Assembly: GCA_964354085.1 (NCBI GenBank)
Contig: CAYGYA010000010.1
Coordinates: 1-20,005, forward strand
Source: an uncultured Methanosarcinales archaeon
Lineage (GTDB): Archaea > Nanobdellota > Nanobdellia > Woesearchaeales > SM23-78
Length of the DNA stretch: 20,005 bases
Reading direction: 5' to 3'
The notes beneath the pieces were generated by a model, which worked only from the letters and a program-made list of their open reading frames with translations, made no database searches and had not been told where the DNA came from. Each line of letters opens with the position of its first letter. The first letter of the stretch is position 1. The translations under genes were made by a program, and so were the position numbers. Shown in pieces: positions 16,231 to 20,005 of the stretch.

Positions 16231-16752
16231 ATGGAAAGAAAGGAGTTTTTTGTAAGTAAAGACCATTTAGAGTATGTCCTGTCTAATCAAGAGCTCACAA
16301 ATTCTTTTTCTGAAGAATACGAGACAACAGAAACCCCCTCTGTGTTCTACCTGAACATGAAATACACGGGCGAGATATACCTTCCCATCACTATTTTTCA
16401 AGGCAAGCTGACCCCATTCCAGGCCATAATAAAATACCTTAAAGAGCAGCTTAACCTGTCAAACAGGAAAATCTCTCACCTATTAAATAAGGATATAAAA
16501 GCAGTCTGGGCAGCATACCAACTAGGAAGAAAGAAACCTTTTCTGTTCAATGAAACCCCGATACAAGTACCTTTGAGCATTTTTAAAGACAAAAATCTCA
16601 GCAGCCTTGAAGCACTTGTGAGATTTCTAAAGAACCTAGATATGAATTATGCTGAAATTGCACGACTACTGAATAGGGACCAGAGAACAATCTGGACAGT
16701 ATATTCGCGAGCAAAAAAAAAGTTAGGATTAGTCGAGAATGAAAAAGAATAA
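16231..16752 (+). CDS. Small DNA-binding protein with two tandem sigma-70-region-4-like HTH modules
   Basis: 173-aa ORF with an internal duplication. PFQAIIKYLKEQLNLSNRKISHLLNKDIKAVWAAYQLGRKK aligns with SLEALVRFLKNLDMNYAEIARLLNRDQRTIWTVYSRAKKKL. The second module strongly resembles an ECF sigma region 4 or LuxR-type HTH. Confidence 0.7.
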   Translation: MERKEFFVSKDHLEYVLSNQELTNSFSEEYETTETPSVFYLNMKYTGEIYLPITIFQGKLTPFQAIIKYLKEQLNLSNRKISHLLNKDIKAVWAAYQLGRKKPFLFNETPIQVPLSIFKDKNLSSLEALVRFLKNLDMNYAEIARLLNRDQRTIWTVYSRAKKKLGLVENEKE

Positions 16753-17488
16753 CCTAGTTAATAGAATGAGGAAAGCGAACATTATCTTGTTACTTCTGGT
16801 AATATTAGCTATTATAATATTTACCAATAAGACATTTGTTTTAGCTGCGCCTCAAGGTGCAGCCATAACATTTAATAATACGGAGAACGCGACAACCCGA
16901 CCAGCAGATTCACACACAGCAGCAGGAGGATCATTCACAACACTCCTGCTTAATGTCACCTCGCAGACCAGCAAATGGAAAGCTTACCTGGGAAACGTAA
17001 CGGGAAAATTAACTTTAGATAACTCAAATAATAAGACGATATATGATTGGGCCTTAACTATTGTGCAAGGAGAGGTGTATGTTTCAAGAAACAATTCAAT
17101 CACCTTCAGCTCATTAGCCTGTGCAAATAGAGGGAATATAACTGCAGAAGACACTTACATGAATATTAATTCAAGTAGCGACGACAGCATCAATAAAACA
17201 TTTAACCAATCAATACACAGGTCATTTGTAATAGGAGGGACTGGAACTATTCAGAATAGTACCTGCCCGGCAATAGCCACCTATGTTAATGATTCCAACC
17301 AACCAGCAACTGAAAACGCTACTTTCCAGGAAATGTTCATGTCCGACGGAAGGAGTCCTGTCTTTGTAGCTCTCATTAATGATAACAGGATAGGTTATGA
17401 CCAAGGCCTATATGACTTCCAGATTATAGTTCCTGAAAATCCAACAGGAACTTTAACACCTTATTATTTCTACGCAGAACTAGGTTAA
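16739..17488 (+). CDS. Secreted, sequon-rich protein, paralog 1 (C-terminus YYFYAELG)
   Basis: 249-aa ORF whose start overlaps the upstream stop by 14 nt. It has a signal-like N-terminus (RKANIILLLLVILAIIIFTNKTFVLAAPQGA), about 13 N-x-S/T sequons and two conserved Cys. It is a clear paralog of 18461-19180 and 19256-20005. Confidence 0.8.
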   Translation: MKKNNLVNRMRKANIILLLLVILAIIIFTNKTFVLAAPQGAAITFNNTENATTRPADSHTAAGGSFTTLLLNVTSQTSKWKAYLGNVTGKLTLDNSNNKTIYDWALTIVQGEVYVSRNNSITFSSLACANRGNITAEDTYMNINSSSDDSINKTFNQSIHRSFVIGGTGTIQNSTCPAIATYVNDSNQPATENATFQEMFMSDGRSPVFVALINDNRIGYDQGLYDFQIIVPENPTGTLTPYYFYAELG

Positions 17489-17725
17489 TCTTAAGTAACA
17501 AATACTTGATTTTTCTAATTCTTAATTTTTAGCCCTTCTAGAATTGTAATTCAGTCTATAATTAATTAGTGTAATTTCTTTATTCTCTTATTTTATAGAT
17601 TTATTAAGTACAGTAGTTAACTAATAACCGAAACATTTAAATATCTGTGGTGATATTAGGCTTTCAATAGCTAAAAAACAATACTAGAATCAAGAAAATT
17701 ATCATACCAATACTGGAAGCCTATA

Positions 17726-17760
17726 AACAATTCCTGTCGCCTTGAAAAACAGGAATTGTT
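17726..17760. promoter_or_regulatory. Perfect 12-bp inverted repeat (AACAATTCCTGT-N11-ACAGGAATTGTT), candidate operator
   Basis: The arms are at 17726-17737 and 17749-17760. The repeat overlaps a TATA-like CTATAAAC (17721-17728) and ends 33 nt upstream of the wHTH gene ATG at 17794. Confidence 0.45.
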
Positions 17761-17793
17761 CATGATCAAAACCGTTGCAAGCAAAAAAACAAA

Positions 17794-18459
17794 ATGGAAC
17801 AAGAAACCCTTTTTACGGCCTCGAAATGGGACATCCTGAAGATTCTCTCTTCAGGCAGCAAATCCCCATTTCAGCTGGCAAAAATGTCCAGCACCTCTGT
17901 TGCAAACATAAGCCAACAGCTCCGACTTCTAGAAATGGCCGGCCTTGTTCAGAGCAAGAGGATTTCCAACAGAGACAAGGGCCAACCAAGGATTCTTTAC
18001 TCTCTGGTTGGAAATCAATCTTTCTTAATCGCGAGCACCAAGGATTTTGTAGACAAAAAGTTATTGAAGCTGAGCGAATACAATAAAGTCATACTCAAGA
18101 TCTGGTTCCTGGACAATCCTAAGCTTCACTATTATCTTGAAAAAGCTTTCTGGCATATAGAAGAAGCTCTCACTGAAAATGACGCGCTTCTTTTTGAAAC
18201 AAACAATTCAGATGACATCAGCCTAATAATAATATCAGACAGCCCCGAGCTAAAGCGAGGGTTGAAAAAAATATCAATAAAAAGCCCGGAGGGTGCTTCA
18301 AAAACAATTCTTTTCAATGTTAAAGCAAAATCAGAGTTAAAGAGACTTCCCAGCGCCTGTTATGTGCTTTATGACCCTTCTAGTCTTGTTGCTTTCCAAA
18401 AAGGTGAAGATGAAGAAAAGGATTTGATTAAAACAAAAACACGAGAGGTGAAGAGGTAA
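17794..18459 (+). CDS. Winged-helix (ArsR/TrmB-like) DNA-binding protein with an unknown C-terminal domain
   Basis: 221-aa ORF. SKWDILKILSSGSKSPFQLAKMSSTSVANISQQLRLLEMAGLVQSKR is a typical ArsR-type wHTH. The C-terminal roughly 130 aa are unassigned. The next gene starts 1 nt after its stop. Confidence 0.75.
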   Translation: MEQETLFTASKWDILKILSSGSKSPFQLAKMSSTSVANISQQLRLLEMAGLVQSKRISNRDKGQPRILYSLVGNQSFLIASTKDFVDKKLLKLSEYNKVILKIWFLDNPKLHYYLEKAFWHIEEALTENDALLFETNNSDDISLIIISDSPELKRGLKKISIKSPEGASKTILFNVKAKSELKRLPSACYVLYDPSSLVAFQKGEDEEKDLIKTKTREVKR

Positions 18460-18460
18460 A

Positions 18461-19180
18461 ATGAAATTTGAAGAATATATTAAAAAAATTGTTTTGTTAA
18501 TGATAGTTTTAGGATTACTATATACAGGAATAACATCAGTATTCGGAGTTCAGGGAGCAACAAGTGTGACTCCTGGTGCATCAAGCAGGGCTAGTTTTGT
18601 AAATTCATCCTCTGCTAGCACAGAAGTACAGGCAGGAAATGTGACTGAGCTGAATATTAGTGGCACTGCAGTGACCGAGCACTGGGCAGGCTTCTACGGA
18701 GAAATAACAGGAGACATCACCTTGGCAAATGCTGCTGGTAATGTGTTCTATAATTGGACAGGCCTTGGCTCAATAAGCGGCGAAGTGTTTGCCTCTACTG
18801 ACAATGCAGTTTCATGGAGTGGCATAGGTTGCGCTTCTGCTGGTGAACTTTCAACTATTGAAGGAATAATTGGGATTGCACCTACTGACGCAGATAGAAT
18901 CAACGCGACTTATACTACGACAGCTCATCCAGACTTTACTGTTGGCGGTGCATCAGTAAGCGGATGCGACAGCACCAATGCTTATACTGATACAGGGCTT
19001 GATGCCAGCTCATTTTACCAGGTATTGCTAACAGACACTCAGGGAGATGCTGTATATACCACTTTAATCAACGACTCTATTACAGGATTTAACAATGCAG
19101 CCCATGACTTTGAGTTATTGGTTGGAGAGCCTGACAGCGCAGGAGCAACTGCAATGTACTTTTACCTAGAGCTAGGCTGA
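18461..19180 (+). CDS. Secreted protein, paralog 2 (C-terminus MYFYLELG)
   Basis: 239-aa ORF with the signal-like KKIVLLMIVLGLLYTGITSVFGVQGA. The mature part is acidic, with no Lys and only two Arg, and has about 6 sequons and two conserved Cys. It aligns with paralogs 1 and 3, for example HWAGFYGEITGDITLANAAGNVFYNW with KWKAYLGNVTGKLTLDNSNNKTIYDW. Confidence 0.8.
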   Translation: MKFEEYIKKIVLLMIVLGLLYTGITSVFGVQGATSVTPGASSRASFVNSSSASTEVQAGNVTELNISGTAVTEHWAGFYGEITGDITLANAAGNVFYNWTGLGSISGEVFASTDNAVSWSGIGCASAGELSTIEGIIGIAPTDADRINATYTTTAHPDFTVGGASVSGCDSTNAYTDTGLDASSFYQVLLTDTQGDAVYTTLINDSITGFNNAAHDFELLVGEPDSAGATAMYFYLELG

Positions 19181-19255
19181 AAATAGCAGGAAAAATGAAG
19201 AGATTAATCCAATAACAAAAGCGATAACAAAAACTTTAACCACAGGAGGAATGTG

Positions 19256-20005
19256 ATGATGAATTATCAAAATAAAAAAACAAAAAACATTTTACTGCTT
19301 TGTTTTTCCACAATCATCATATTCAGTGGCCTATCATTTTACCTGGCTAATGCACTCCCTCAAGGAGCAACAATATCAGGGACGCCAACTGTGGACCCTG
19401 GCCCTAATCAAACAGCAGGCTACAGGCAGGACTTGGGTGGCAGAATTATAACTCTTAACCTTAATCTTGAGCAGCAAGATACTTCTTGGAAGGCATATGT
19501 AGGGAACGTTTCAGGAATGTATGTCTTGAAGAACTCAAACAACTATAGTATATATGAATGGCCTCTGGGGGCTACTATTACTGGTGAAATATATACCTCC
19601 AGAAACAATTCTGTGAATTTCACTACAGGAGCAATAACCTGCGCTAATAACTCAGAAATGGTGAGCGAACAGGGTTTTTTAGGAATGAATAATTCTGCTG
19701 TGGATAATATTAATAACACCTTTAACAGCACAAGCCACGCAGCGTTTAGCGCTGGCTATAACAACATTCCTCAGAATAATTGCTCATCAATAGCACTATG
19801 GGTTAATGATACTCAACAAGCACCTAGTTCCTCAGCTATCTTTCAGGAAGTAACCTTGCATGATGGTATTAATCTTATTTACGCCTCTCTTATAAACAAT
19901 GATCAGAAAGGATTTGATAATACAACCACTTTTGATTTTCAAGCCATTGTTGCTGAGAATCGTTCGAGCCCCACAGGAACTTCTTATTACTTTTACTTAG
20001 AGTTA
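19256..20005 (+). CDS. Secreted, sequon-rich protein, paralog 3 (3'-partial; runs off the window at ...YYFYLEL)
   Basis: This gene is not in the ORF track because no stop lies inside the window. I translated it by hand from ATG 19256, which has a GGAGGA Shine-Dalgarno at 19245-19250. The N-terminus reads MMNYQNKKTKNILLLCFSTIIIFSGLSFYLANALPQGATISG. It continues ...TSWKAYVGNVSGMYVLKNSNNYSIYEW...CANNS...NNCSS...ASLINNDQKGFDNTTTFDFQAIVAEN...SYYFYLEL. There are 250 complete codons with no stop. Confidence 0.8.
   Translation, partial: MMNYQNKKTKNILLLCFSTIIIFSGLSFYLANALPQGATISGTPTVDPGPNQTAGYRQDLGGRIITLNLNLEQQDTSWKAYVGNVSGMYVLKNSNNYSIYEWPLGATITGEIYTSRNNSVNFTTGAITCANNSEMVSEQGFLGMNNSAVDNINNTFNSTSHAAFSAGYNNIPQNNCSSIALWVNDTQQAPSSSAIFQEVTLHDGINLIYASLINNDQKGFDNTTTFDFQAIVAENRSSPTGTSYYFYLEL

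Follow-up and report, generated by a model that had tools for sequence, protein, structure and literature searches.

A previously undescribed family of secreted archaeal proteins that may build or anchor a cell-surface assembly

Results

The features of the window (the whole stretch of DNA analysed, 20,005 nt) are listed in Table 1. Reg1, par1, reg2, par2 and par3 were all found where the original prediction had placed them, and both couplings that it had described between a regulator gene and the gene downstream are real. The par1 ATG (16739) lies ahead of the reg1 stop codon (16750–16752), giving a 14-nt overlap, and 1 nt separates the reg2 stop codon (18457–18459) from the par2 ATG (18461). 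The two upstream genes encode DNA-binding proteins, as proposed: the dual sigma-r4-like reg1 product matched Pfam Sigma70_r4_2 in two stretches (E 1.7e-8), and the ArsR-like reg2 product matched Pfam HTH_5 (ArsR-type, E 2.4e-6) and NCBIfam ArsR/SmtB (5.6e-7), with a weak Lrs14 match (3.4e-5) and a C-terminal domain of ~130 aa to which no function is assigned. Par3 reads ...YYFYLEL at the window end; because its ortholog in the syntenic locus L001 (12527–13279) ends in YYFYLELGP plus a stop, par3 lacks only ~2 codons and the stop.

Table 1. Coordinates of the features of the window
Feature	Position	Strand	Description
GT4 glycosyltransferase	11920–13113	(-)	397-aa ORF; L001 ortholog has Glyco_transf_4/Glycos_transf_1
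PIG-L/LmbE-type de-N-acetylase	13132–13818	(-)	Pfam PIG-L E 1.6e-23; near M600
M600	14159–15970	(-)	603 aa; signal peptide, large ectodomain, one C-terminal transmembrane helix, cytoplasmic zinc ribbon
Divergent intergenic region M600/reg1	15971–16230
reg1 (R1)	16231–16752	(+)	173 aa; two tandem sigma-70 region-4-like HTH units
par1 (P1 type)	16739–17488	(+)	249 aa; ends YYFYAELG
15-nt inverted repeat ATAAACAATTCCTGT / ACAGGAATTGTTCAT	17723–17763		93% complementary
reg2 (R2)	17794–18459	(+)	221 aa; N-terminal ArsR-type winged HTH
par2 (A type)	18461–19180	(+)	239 aa; signal peptide, N-terminal arm, family domain; ends MYFYLELG
par3 (B type)	19256–20005	(+)	250 codons; cut by window end

M600, whose weak Pfam matches concern the zinc ribbon only, is transcribed divergently from reg1-par1. 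Its orthologs, present in 42 of 81 related loci, adjoin the R1-P1 pair or lie directly 3' of the gene for protein C (~310 aa), and M600 is a candidate for the membrane base of an assembly. The intergenic region carries three copies of ATACTTACA (16133–16142, 16151–16162 and 16204–16216), and an inverted copy lies at 16247–16258. Judged from their sequence these are candidate operator or promoter elements; because the region is AT-rich, the repeats could also be due to chance. The inverted repeat ATAAACAATTCCTGT / ACAGGAATTGTTCAT, 30 nt 5' of the reg2 start, is likewise a candidate operator, possibly for an ArsR-like dimer. The glycosyltransferase and the de-N-acetylase may supply glycan to the cluster, an association that is weak: such neighbours are kept beside the cluster in close relatives only (f9 in 7 loci, f16 in 3).

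BLASTP showed that par1, par2 and par3 encode true paralogs with a similarity far above chance, at 41% identity for par1-par3 (E 6e-58), 28% for par2-par3 (E 4e-26) and 27% for par1-par2 (E 9e-33). All of the motifs listed originally were seen in the three-paralog alignment, but family-wide conservation does not extend to LIN(D/N). It does extend to the C-terminal motif YYF(Y/W)xE(L/I) (Y 95%, Y 89%, F 94%, E 94%, L/I 97%), and the chain ends 0–2 residues past it. The N-terminal arm (xPxGAxITxNxTE) is also conserved, with P38 in 92% and G40 in 81%. About 20 polar or aromatic positions reach 90% conservation or more over all subtypes, among them D149, T154, H160, D203, D226, E247, W80 and W104, a set that could also serve in catalysis or in the binding of a ligand or metal.

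The two conserved Cys lie at 128/176 in par1, 124/169 in par2 and 129/176 in par3, and sequons are enriched 2–3 times in the window paralogs. Mature par1 and par3 each carry 13, compared with 4.6 +/- 1.8 and 5.2 +/- 1.9 in shuffles, and mature par2, which is Ala/Gly-rich with 0 Lys and 2 Arg, carries 6 versus 2.8 +/- 1.4. Across the family a domain has a median of 9 sequons, with one at the GN(V/I)(T/S)G site in 90% of members and one in the arm in 45%. Each mature paralog is described by the models as a single beta-rich domain of ~21 kDa with a previously undescribed fold, probably with one disulfide and N-glycosylated at 6–13 sites.

Each of the three paralogs has a Sec-type signal peptide, and a signal peptidase I type signal is kept across the family, in agreement with the predicted secretion. 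The (P/V)QGA motif does not close the hydrophobic segment, as had been proposed, but opens the mature protein two residues past an AXA-type signal peptidase I site. In par1 the signal peptide spans residues 1–36 (16739–16846), with cleavage predicted between VLA and APQG, followed by the arm (residues 37–66) and the beta-rich domain (residues 67–249). Among 433 family members, 97% show 12 or more consecutive uncharged residues ahead of the conserved Pro, and the (-3,-1) rule holds at a fixed distance from this Pro (V/A/T/I/S at -3 in 86%, A/G/S at -1 in 89%). A signal peptidase I-like gene lies within the cluster in 15 of 81 loci, directly 3' of P1 in six.

The three paralogs are members of a large, previously undescribed secreted family of Woesearchaeota-type ultra-small (DPANN) archaea, which comprises at least 1315 clusters at 50% identity. 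As the original prediction had it, the family is not a recognised one: there was no sequence match in Pfam, NCBIfam or PDB. Named sources were all Woesearchaeota/Nanoarchaeota genomes except for one contig labelled Bacteroidota. GTDB species genomes gave 205 matches, and the best 80 of these 205 (78 loci) came from Woesearchaeota or Nanoarchaeota MAGs or bore generic or placeholder labels. The family appears not to be viral: a search of IMG/VR found no relatives.

Gene order around the family is conserved, and the window covers the left portion of a super-locus in which a dual-HTH protein gene precedes P1 and an ArsR-like protein gene precedes A-type, B-type and protein C genes in turn, with further genes for single-pass membrane proteins and sometimes signal peptidase I. 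The overlap of R1 with a P1-type gene immediately downstream recurs in 58 of 58 loci, and a family gene comes next after R2 in 51 of 52. An A-type gene is followed by a B-type or P1-type gene in 71 of 89 cases, B-type or P1-type by protein C in 53, and protein C by a transmembrane-anchored protein in 18. The number of family genes per locus has a median of 3 and a maximum of 7, and two of them with one accessory gene make up the recurrent unit. The suspicion that the cluster runs beyond the window was borne out by L001, which has in addition a 325-aa protein and two further paralogs.

The family domain also occurs in long forms of 350–2359 aa, once per protein and always at the extreme C-terminus; A type, that of par2, is the subtype found there. 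Their N-terminal parts are variable (Beta_helix/NosD, DUF2341, LamG-like, Big_7), and the arm, preceded by an Ig-like domain, is internal. Of 18 long forms, 10 carry an (H/S)FSxY motif, the Nup98 cleavage motif (cut between HF and S), 86–118 aa ahead of the family domain, and P0190 scored 31.0 bits against Pfam PF04096 (cutoff 28.4). With its C-terminal module constant and its N-terminal parts variable, this architecture looks, from these sequences, like an anchoring or co-assembly pattern and not like that of a polymorphic toxin.

All structure predictions covered monomers. The AlphaFold2 model of par2 (pLDDT 90.5, pTM 0.81) had no Foldseek neighbour in PDB, and its predicted fold matches no solved structure. 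This ruled out a subunit of the TasA, ABP/AbpA, cannula (CanA), thread or chaperone-usher type, and the suggested kinship with known donor-strand filament subunits or S-layer proteins found no match. The YFYxELG strand, suggested earlier as a possible donor, was placed inside the fold (pLDDT 85–95) and is strongly coupled to core strand positions (102-243, 226-241, 197-244, 83-243, 209-246); the models thus make it a core strand. The arm was disordered in the first model. In the deep-alignment model it has almost no regular secondary structure and docks on its own domain (pLDDT 76–89) instead of being free for a neighbour. Arm residue 41 is coupled to residue 246 of the C-terminal strand (z 6.6, rank 14 of all pairs), with a weaker 40-245 coupling in parallel register, and the arm-to-strand ladder score of 9.3 fell under the 99.9th background percentile (13.6). 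Since the arm would lie on the C-terminal strand, the two conserved termini would share one face, and in the prediction the monomer itself satisfies both.

Discussion

The most likely role of the paralogs is to build a cell-surface assembly or to anchor one. Our leading, still tentative version, to which we assign a probability of roughly 0.45, is that they co-assemble into a surface scaffold of glycoproteins, to which giant display proteins are also tethered. Because the fold has no filament, lattice or anchor neighbour, the argument is drawn from architecture and gene context. Domain-only small proteins together with large proteins carrying the domain at the C-terminus form the small-subunit plus large-adhesin pattern that is expected of a surface assembly. 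Precedents are the WxL clusters described below, the ABP operon, with its signal peptidase I-cleaved glycosylated pilin, larger beta-sandwich accessory protein and wHTH regulator (PMC9245690), and the lineage-specific Pam pili of CPR bacteria (bioRxiv 10.64898/2026.03.03.709456). Several observations count against a scaffold: the termini predicted to be satisfied within the monomer speak against co-assembly, the ~20 conserved polar or aromatic positions would also fit a binding or catalytic site, and P1 orthologs keep 45–50% identity across many species, slow divergence for an exposed pilin. Of the original interpretation, secretion, sequon richness, novelty, regulator coupling and cluster continuation were supported, and the large forms agree with it; a free donor strand and a likeness to known filament subunits were not supported.

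A non-polymeric anchoring platform of the WxL type fits the same facts by analogy, and we regard it as plausible though rather unlikely. Here the domain would hold proteins at the surface non-covalently; a pair of small paralogs with one partner (protein C, M600 or f14) would form a discrete envelope complex, on which giant proteins would dock through their own domain copy. The working model is the small WxL, large WxL and WxLIP proteins of Firmicutes, whose clusters encode a small domain-only protein (signal peptide plus domain), a large one that carries the domain C-terminally, behind binding-type domains, and an Ig-like transmembrane partner (PMC10599100). Here too, partners are co-encoded and beta-rich or transmembrane-anchored, the recurrent unit recalls the commonest WxL cluster (two WxL plus one WxLIP), and high conservation with many conserved polar and aromatic residues suits a binding domain. 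However, none of the 149 members scanned matched the WxL Pfam family, and both small partners are domain-only in up to 7 copies per locus, which exceeds the needs of a simple anchor. Nor are archaea expected to have a peptidoglycan-type wall as the envelope polymer for such a domain to bind.

Donor-strand exchange, as first envisaged, would have the arm or the C-terminal strand complete the next subunit's sheet in a pilus built of major and minor subunits and capped by a tip adhesin; we now consider this improbable. The arm is conserved and nearly devoid of secondary structure, its sequon in 45% of members recalls the likewise glycosylated donor strand of AbpA, and some clusters hold a signal peptidase I gene, like sipW beside tasA (PMC9245690). 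Docking of the arm on its own domain leaves room for exchange, because the AlphaFold monomer of AbpA, a proven donor-strand pilin, also self-complements (PMC9245690). The strong 41-246 coupling points the same way, but a single such pair could come from phylogenetic signal, and the ladder score stayed below the 99.9th background percentile. The predicted core position of the C-terminal strand, the internal arm of the long forms and the lack of fold likeness to TasA, AbpA, CanA, the thread subunit or chaperone-usher pilins also speak against exchange.

It is doubtful that the domain is a secreted lectin or host-binding adhesin recognising a glycan or protein on another cell, such as the host of a presumed episymbiont. 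The small paralogs would then be soluble or loosely attached binders, and in the long forms the domain would serve to direct an enzymatic or adhesive N-terminal part to its target. Carbohydrate-binding modules are often C-terminal in multidomain proteins, a position that the domain shares; conserved Trp, Tyr, Asp, Glu and His positions are common to all subtypes, and the paralogs differ in surface composition, par2 being acidic with no Lys and few sequons. However, these binding-type residues are invariant among paralogs and not diversified, the fixed A-B-C order, dedicated regulators and transmembrane partners are unusual for lectins, and a self-cleaving domain between the outer part and the family domain better fits a cell-proximal anchor than a distal binder.

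That the domain is a secreted enzyme or toxin with an envelope polymer as its target, delivered by the long forms after self-cleavage, is highly improbable: the conserved Asp/Glu/His set and the upstream releasing peptidase-like domain, of a kind described for polymorphic toxins (PMC3482391), stand against a polarity opposite to that of such toxins, a lack of immunity-gene-like partners, the retention of the same residues by all of the up to 7 paralogs of a locus, no enzyme family or fold match, and heavy predicted glycosylation.

Returning to the scaffold, the three pre-proteins would leave the cell by the Sec pathway, with signal peptidase I cutting two residues ahead of the nearly invariant Pro. 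Outside the membrane the small paralogs would associate mutually, P1 working alone and A-type with B-type together with protein C, on a base of co-encoded single-pass membrane proteins (M600 in the window). Paralogs and base would form the scaffold as a thin fibre or patch, into which giant display proteins with beta-helix, Ig-like and LamG-like parts would plug via their C-terminal domain copy; after cleavage by the upstream Nup98-like self-cleaving domain, their outer part would stay attached by non-covalent contacts. Expression of each module would be set by the HTH proteins co-transcribed with it. Such a surface assembly may matter for contact with other cells.

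Paralogs, Export Signal, and Window Elements

Aligned over their full length, the three secreted proteins par1, par2, and par3 showed identities of 27%, 41%, and 28%, with BLASTP E values of 9e-33 (par1-par2), 6e-58 (par1-par3), and 4e-26 (par2-par3), in agreement with the original prediction of one paralogous family. The mature proteins (∼21 kDa) carried 13, 6, and 13 sequons in par1, par2, and par3, respectively, versus 4.6, 2.8, and 5.2 in composition-matched shuffles, so that the sequon richness first read from the sequence is real. Two aligned Cys were found in every paralog, and mature par2 contained no Lys and two Arg, both as first described. 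The claimed coupling to upstream regulators also held, as a 14-nt overlap between reg1 and par1 and a 1-nt gap between reg2 and par2, and both regulators kept the helix-turn-helix (HTH) assignments listed in the table.

One reading had to be reversed. The (P/V)QGA motif had been taken as the end of the hydrophobic segment, but xPxG opens the mature protein. Among 433 non-identical short family members, 97% had an uncharged stretch of at least 12 residues upstream of the cleavage-type site, and the residues 3 and 1 before the residue preceding the conserved Pro were V/A/T/I/S in 86% and A/G/S in 89%, respectively. Because this (-3,-1) pattern is the signal peptidase I rule, the export signal of the family is of the Sec/signal peptidase I type and not a pilin-type class III signal, with cleavage of par1 predicted at VLA/APQG. 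A class III signal was ruled out by the position of the cleavage-type site after the hydrophobic segment, and no [KR][GA] plus hydrophobic residue was visible ahead of that segment in par1-par3. A Tat signal was ruled out from the par1-par3 sequences and the family cleavage-site pattern.

M600, the membrane protein divergent from reg1-par1, is separated from reg1 by an intergenic region of 260 bp and has orthologs in 42 related loci. Pfam matches to its zinc ribbon were weak; CPRC...CRKC is readable in the sequence. A tail made of a transmembrane helix and a cytoplasmic zinc ribbon is unusual for a surface protein. The 15-nt inverted repeat ATAAACAATTCCTGT / ACAGGAATTGTTCAT, with an 11-nt spacer, lies 30 nt 5' of the reg2 start codon and is a candidate operator for this ArsR-like protein. 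Upstream of reg1, the motif ATACTTACA is present in three copies, and a further, inverted one lies just within the coding start of reg1; these repeats may serve the dual-HTH protein as an operator or, the DNA being AT-rich, have arisen by chance. An Rfam scan of the window gave no match.

The window appears to span its entire contig, as the longest contig listed for the cluster with the exact par1 sequence measures 20005 bases. Elsewhere it holds typical archaeal housekeeping genes. Pfam identified Dus, an HtpX-type M48 peptidase, and RNase HII, and a 1166-aa SMC-like ORF and a GT4 glycosyltransferase were identified by eye or via an ortholog. Separately, a 381-aa ORF matched Pfam MATCAP (microtubule-associated tyrosine carboxypeptidase family, PF08014; E 4.9e-49), an unexpected family name in a DPANN archaeon. 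Two paralogous ORFs of ∼160 aa with a 119-aa ORF between them are followed by an ORF of 317 aa that contains GPSGVGKG, a P-loop-like motif, and none of these four matched Pfam.

Features of the window and of related loci
Feature	Locus	Position	Strand	Description
381-aa ORF	Window	2670-3815	+	Pfam MATCAP match
∼160-aa ORF	Window	9681-10166	+	First of paralogous pair
∼160-aa ORF	Window	10523-11002	+	Second of paralogous pair
ORF pair through 317-aa ORF	Window	9681-11918	+	Includes 119-aa ORF
M600	Window	14159-15970	-	603 aa: signal peptide, large ectodomain, one C-terminal transmembrane helix, cytoplasmic zinc ribbon
ATACTTACA repeats	Window	16133-16258		Possible operator for reg1
reg1	Window	16231-16752	+	Two sigma-70 region-4-like HTH units
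par1	Window	16739-17488	+	Family paralog
Inverted repeat	Window	17723-17763		Candidate operator for reg2
reg2	Window	17794-18459	+	ArsR-type winged HTH
par2	Window	18461-19180	+	Family paralog
par3	Window	19256 to window end	+	Family paralog
Protein D	L001	16046-17065	-	
Protein D	L003	11475-14570	+	
Protein D	L003	18740-19807	-	
F5	L003	6137-6823	-	∼228 aa, secreted; with f1, also at 28 other loci
f1	L003	4403-6103	-	∼600 aa, transmembrane region
f8	L054, L072, L075, L080, L053			Signal peptidase I-like
f15	L051, L055, L032, L064, L060			Signal peptidase I-like
Long forms	P0190, P0208, P0211, P0220, P0222, P0223, P0236, P0238, P0242, P0257			S59-like domain and (H/S)FSxY

Extent and Predicted Fold of the Family

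A word-indexed search returned 240 relatives, all unnamed or hypothetical and without a Pfam domain, and an exhaustive profile search gave at least 1315 representative clusters at 50% identity, 452 of them with E < 1e-30. The family had been put forward as unrecognized, and it stayed so: there was no Pfam match for the three paralogs and 149 diverse members scanned singly, none in NCBIfam, nothing below E 0.5 in a profile search of PDB sequences, and no description of the family in the literature searched. Organism-named sources among the 240 relatives were Woesearchaeota/Nanoarchaeota, except for one old "Euryarchaeota" and one "Bacteroidota" label. The latter belongs to the relative P0095, on a 12.8-kb contig labelled Bacteroidota bacterium, and is probably a binning error because every other named source is a DPANN archaeon. 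Scanning one genome per GTDB species yielded 205 confirmed matches, the best 80 of which (78 loci) all lay in Woesearchaeota/Nanoarchaeota metagenome-assembled genomes or in ones with generic or placeholder labels. IMG/VR held no relative, and the locus is syntenic in chromosomal contigs of up to 630 kb; a viral or mobile origin was rejected on these grounds.

The subtypes P1 (par1 type), A (par2 type, PA), A2 (PA2), and B (par3 type) form one family (hhalign probability 100). At least 90% conserved in all subtypes are P38, G64, W80, G85, N86, G89, L93, Y102, W104, G111, C128, D149, T154, F155, H160, C176, D203, D226, F227, Y242, F244, and E247, and the chain ends 0-2 residues past E-(L/I). 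The family domain has a median of 9 sequons, and in 90% of members N86, within GN(V/I)(T/S)G, is one of them. As a proxy for subunit packing we looked for natural tandem copies of the domain and found none.

With 38 sequences, AlphaFold2 modeled par1 as a helical signal peptide and a beta-rich domain (residues 67-249, mostly pLDDT ∼90), with the conserved N-terminal arm (residues 37-66) disordered. The par2 model, built from 149 diverse sequences, reached pLDDT 90.5 and pTM 0.81; its arm, at pLDDT 76-89, was nearly without regular secondary structure, and the C-terminal strand scored ∼95. Foldseek searches of the PDB with two models (pLDDT 80.9 and 90.5) gave best E values of 0.41 and 1.5 with TM ≤0.25 and listed no filament subunit, in a copy reaching to April 2026 that should hold TasA, AbpA, the thread subunit, cannula proteins, chaperone-usher pilins, and solved S-layer proteins. 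One model searched against BFVD had no neighbor. Because Foldseek gave no neighbor, the modeled fold looks new, and the known filament families do not share it; a TasA-like jelly roll was ruled out by the same scores.

Gene Order at Related Loci

We took the ORFs of 81 loci, grouped them by clustering, and assigned them labels from reference genes, covering ±8-10 kb around each match with a subset of the ORFs annotated. A larger gene arrangement is conserved, a super-locus whose left part is the window. The dual-HTH gene (R1, reg1 in the window) overlaps and precedes a P1-type gene in 58 of 58 loci, and a family gene follows the ArsR-like gene (R2, reg2 in the window) in 51 of 52 cases. After an A-type gene comes one of B-type or P1-type in 71 of 89 cases (PA, 33/47; PA2, 38/42), and the secreted ∼310-aa protein C follows a B-type or P1-type gene in 53 cases. 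Next after C comes M600 in 13 cases and, in five, f14, a CARDB-like transmembrane protein with a signal peptide. A third module opens with a long family protein and protein D, in this order in 13 of 22 cases. The number of family genes per locus has a median of 3 and a maximum of 7.

Protein D, with 49 members, has a weakly DUF5752-like C-terminal domain with an NDFA.W motif and often precedes an A2-type paralog. In one instance, D is the cytoplasmic tail of a transmembrane protein of 1031 aa with Ig domains. The gene for the secreted protein F5 is commonly followed by that for f1 (28/31), and the N-terminal domain of F5 resembles that of C (hhalign probability 93%). C was also considered as a divergent family member and was not accepted as homologous (hhalign ≤74% probability, short stretches). 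Divergent signal peptidase I-like genes lie within the cluster at 15 loci, none of them the window, and directly after P1 in six; they matched TIGR02228 (E 3e-12), TIGR02227 (E 2e-5), and, weakly, SipW, and they carry a GxSMxP(S/T) motif.

The suspicion that the cluster runs past the window end was confirmed at L001, the closest long syntenic contig, whose par1 ortholog is ∼70% identical. There we found C (325 aa), two more paralogs, D, and a CARDB-like protein of 858-882 aa (called gene, 858; longest ORF, 882). This last protein clusters with the family in ORF clustering, and its C-terminal end resembles, by eye, a divergent family domain.

Long Relatives Carrying the Family Domain

Eighteen of the top 150 representatives were long forms of 350-2359 aa, each with a single copy of the family domain, arm included, always at the extreme C-terminus. 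Their N-terminal parts differ (Beta_helix/NosD, DUF2341, LamG-like, Big_7). Ten of the 18 have an (H/S)FSxY motif that precedes the family domain by 86-118 residues and falls within a match to the Nup98-type S59 domain; PF04096 (peptidase S59) scored 31.0 bits on P0190 versus a cutoff of 28.4, with the other long forms just under the cutoff. HF/S is the cleavage site of Nup98, and Nup98-type cleavage leaves two fragments joined non-covalently. The long relatives share with the autoproteolytic domain of Nup98/Nup96, to which the SEA and GAIN domains of surface proteins are functionally similar, the domain match and the HF/S motif ∼100 residues upstream, which suggests that these giant relatives may be self-cleaving archaeal surface proteins. 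The Nup98-type domain occurs in relatives and in no window protein, and cleavage is read from the motif. Variable N-terminal parts in front of a constant C-terminal module are typical of anchoring or co-assembly modules.

A Proposed Co-assembling Scaffold or Closed Platform

The facts fit a secreted glycoprotein module that would self-associate at the cell surface and tether large display proteins. We favor, with a probability of roughly 0.45, a co-assembling scaffold on a membrane base. The logic of such a module has parallels in pili that carry the shaft domain at the C-terminus of the tip adhesin and in the WxL clusters of Firmicutes (PMC10599100).

A closed platform of the WxL kind comes next, and we consider it unlikely. 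WxL clusters of Lactobacillales and Bacillales likewise encode a small protein made of a signal peptide and one domain, a large protein with this domain at its C-terminus and host-binding domains in front, and an Ig-like or membrane-anchored partner, a likeness of architecture by analogy alone; the usual unit is two domain proteins and one partner, with several clusters per genome (PMC10599100). The partner (WxLIP, DUF916-DUF3324-TM) is predicted to insert a hairpin beside the N-terminus of the domain (PMC10599100). In contrast, the present family is archaeal, predicted to be N-glycosylated, and without sequence relationship to WxL; both of its small proteins are domain-only, the third type, P1, has its own regulator, and the long forms add the Nup98-like, putatively self-cleaving domain. 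The Pfam WxL family had no match in 149 members at E up to 1, and the family has one W-x-L motif (YDWxL) versus the two required of a WxL domain. To our knowledge, no peptidoglycan-type wall to bind is expected in archaea. The data do not separate a co-assembling scaffold from a closed platform; we prefer the scaffold because domain-only paralogs are many and their order is fixed.

Probable Contact of the Two Termini and Likeness to Known Filaments

The original prediction had raised donor-strand exchange as one example of assembly, with complementation by the N- or C-terminal strands. Mean-field direct coupling analysis (DCA) of 474 sequences (Meff 401) recovered the core strand ladders and coupled the C-terminal strand strongly to core strand positions (102-243, 226-241, 197-244, 83-243, and 209-246), so this strand is a core element and not a free donor. 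For the arm there was a single strong pair, 41-246 (z 6.6, rank 14 overall); 40-245, in parallel register, was weaker, and 60-241 had z 6.0. By these couplings, contact between the two conserved termini is probable, be it inside a single subunit or from one subunit to the next. The ladder score of the arm was 9.3, below the background 99.9th percentile of 13.6, and the DCA result on strand donation by the arm is suggestive, not decisive. The AlphaFold monomer of AbpA, a proven donor-strand pilin, self-complements too (PMC9245690). Strict donor-strand exchange, in which each subunit would be completed by a strand of its neighbor, seems to us improbable.

Chaperone-usher and type V pili also reuse the shaft domain as the C-terminal domain of a large adhesin and have major and minor paralogs within one operon. 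FimH, for instance, is a two-domain tip adhesin, with a lectin domain and a C-terminal pilin domain. None of the scanned recurrent neighbor families resembled a chaperone or usher, and C, M600, F5, and f1 had no informative Pfam match; Ig-like pilins were absent from the Foldseek matches, and the fold is not an incomplete Ig-like one. Unlike the bearers of chaperone-usher pili, the source organism is an archaeon and lacks an outer membrane. The Pam pili (PamA/PamB) of CPR bacteria resemble the present case in being a lineage-restricted, previously unannotated family of paralogous surface subunits in ultra-small, presumably episymbiotic prokaryotes, whereas Pam pilins are Ig-like and bacterial, with donor-strand exchange shown by cryo-EM (bioRxiv 10.64898/2026.03.03.709456). 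A PilB/PilC-type ATPase or platform gene was not found among the recurrent neighbor families (±8-10 kb, subset of ORFs annotated), and Pfam, NCBIfam, PDB sequences, and Foldseek gave no match to a known S-layer family or structure. In a Woesearchaeota metatranscriptome, archaellin and S-layer genes were among the top transcripts; this list could not be mapped to the par1-par3 family.

The TasA superfamily comprises Bacillus subtilis TasA/TapA/SipW, the archaeal bundling pili AbpA/AbpB, the Sulfolobus thread, and Pyrodictium cannulae (PMC9245690, PMC9715654, PMC12518558). Shared with it are beta-rich subunits of ∼20 kDa that are cleaved by signal peptidase I, as the Sec signal of the 433 members indicates, and N-glycosylated (predicted here), a larger beta-sandwich accessory protein encoded just downstream, a winged HTH regulator in the operon, a dedicated signal peptidase I gene at some loci, and a conserved N-terminal segment. 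The ABP operon, with its signal peptidase I-cleaved glycosylated pilin, larger beta-sandwich protein just downstream, and winged HTH regulator, shows this arrangement (PMC9245690). The present family differs in its many more paralogs in fixed order and in giant proteins that carry the subunit domain, and neither the three paralogs nor the 149 members matched a TasA-superfamily profile (e.g. Pfam Peptidase_M73, PDB chains).

Conserved Polar Residues and Remaining Roles

A co-assembling scaffold leaves two main facts unexplained, namely the many conserved polar residues and the slow divergence of P1. By analogy with cannulae, the polar residues could be Ca2+ or interface residues (PMC12518558); they could also form a binding site. 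A lectin or adhesin role, in which the small domain itself would bind, has little probability in our judgment. Least probable is an enzyme or toxin role; polymorphic toxins have the opposite polarity to a constant C-terminal module with variable N-terminal parts (PMC3482391).

Meaning for Woesearchaeota

The protein family is new, its fold is apparently new, and the logic of the system resembles known kinds. It is possible, if on balance doubtful, that the family provides the subunit of a new class of archaeal surface polymer, fiber or lattice. This polymer would be built on a fold absent from solved structures, be restricted to DPANN archaea of the Woesearchaeota type, consist of A/B heteromers, have regulators and a membrane base of its own, and hold giant self-cleaving adhesins through the same domain. 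If so, it would be the cell-contact apparatus of its uncultured Woesearchaeota-type lineage.

In anoxic sediments and waters Woesearchaeota are abundant, and they are believed to rely on contact with other cells; we know of no isolate in culture. Because the family is large, lineage-specific, and multicopy per genome, and because its conserved locus also encodes regulators, membrane proteins, and giant display proteins, it is a prime candidate for their principal surface or attachment structure. Apparently, it also adds a new fold to the few secreted prokaryotic modules that occur both as stand-alone proteins and as the C-terminal plug of large adhesins.
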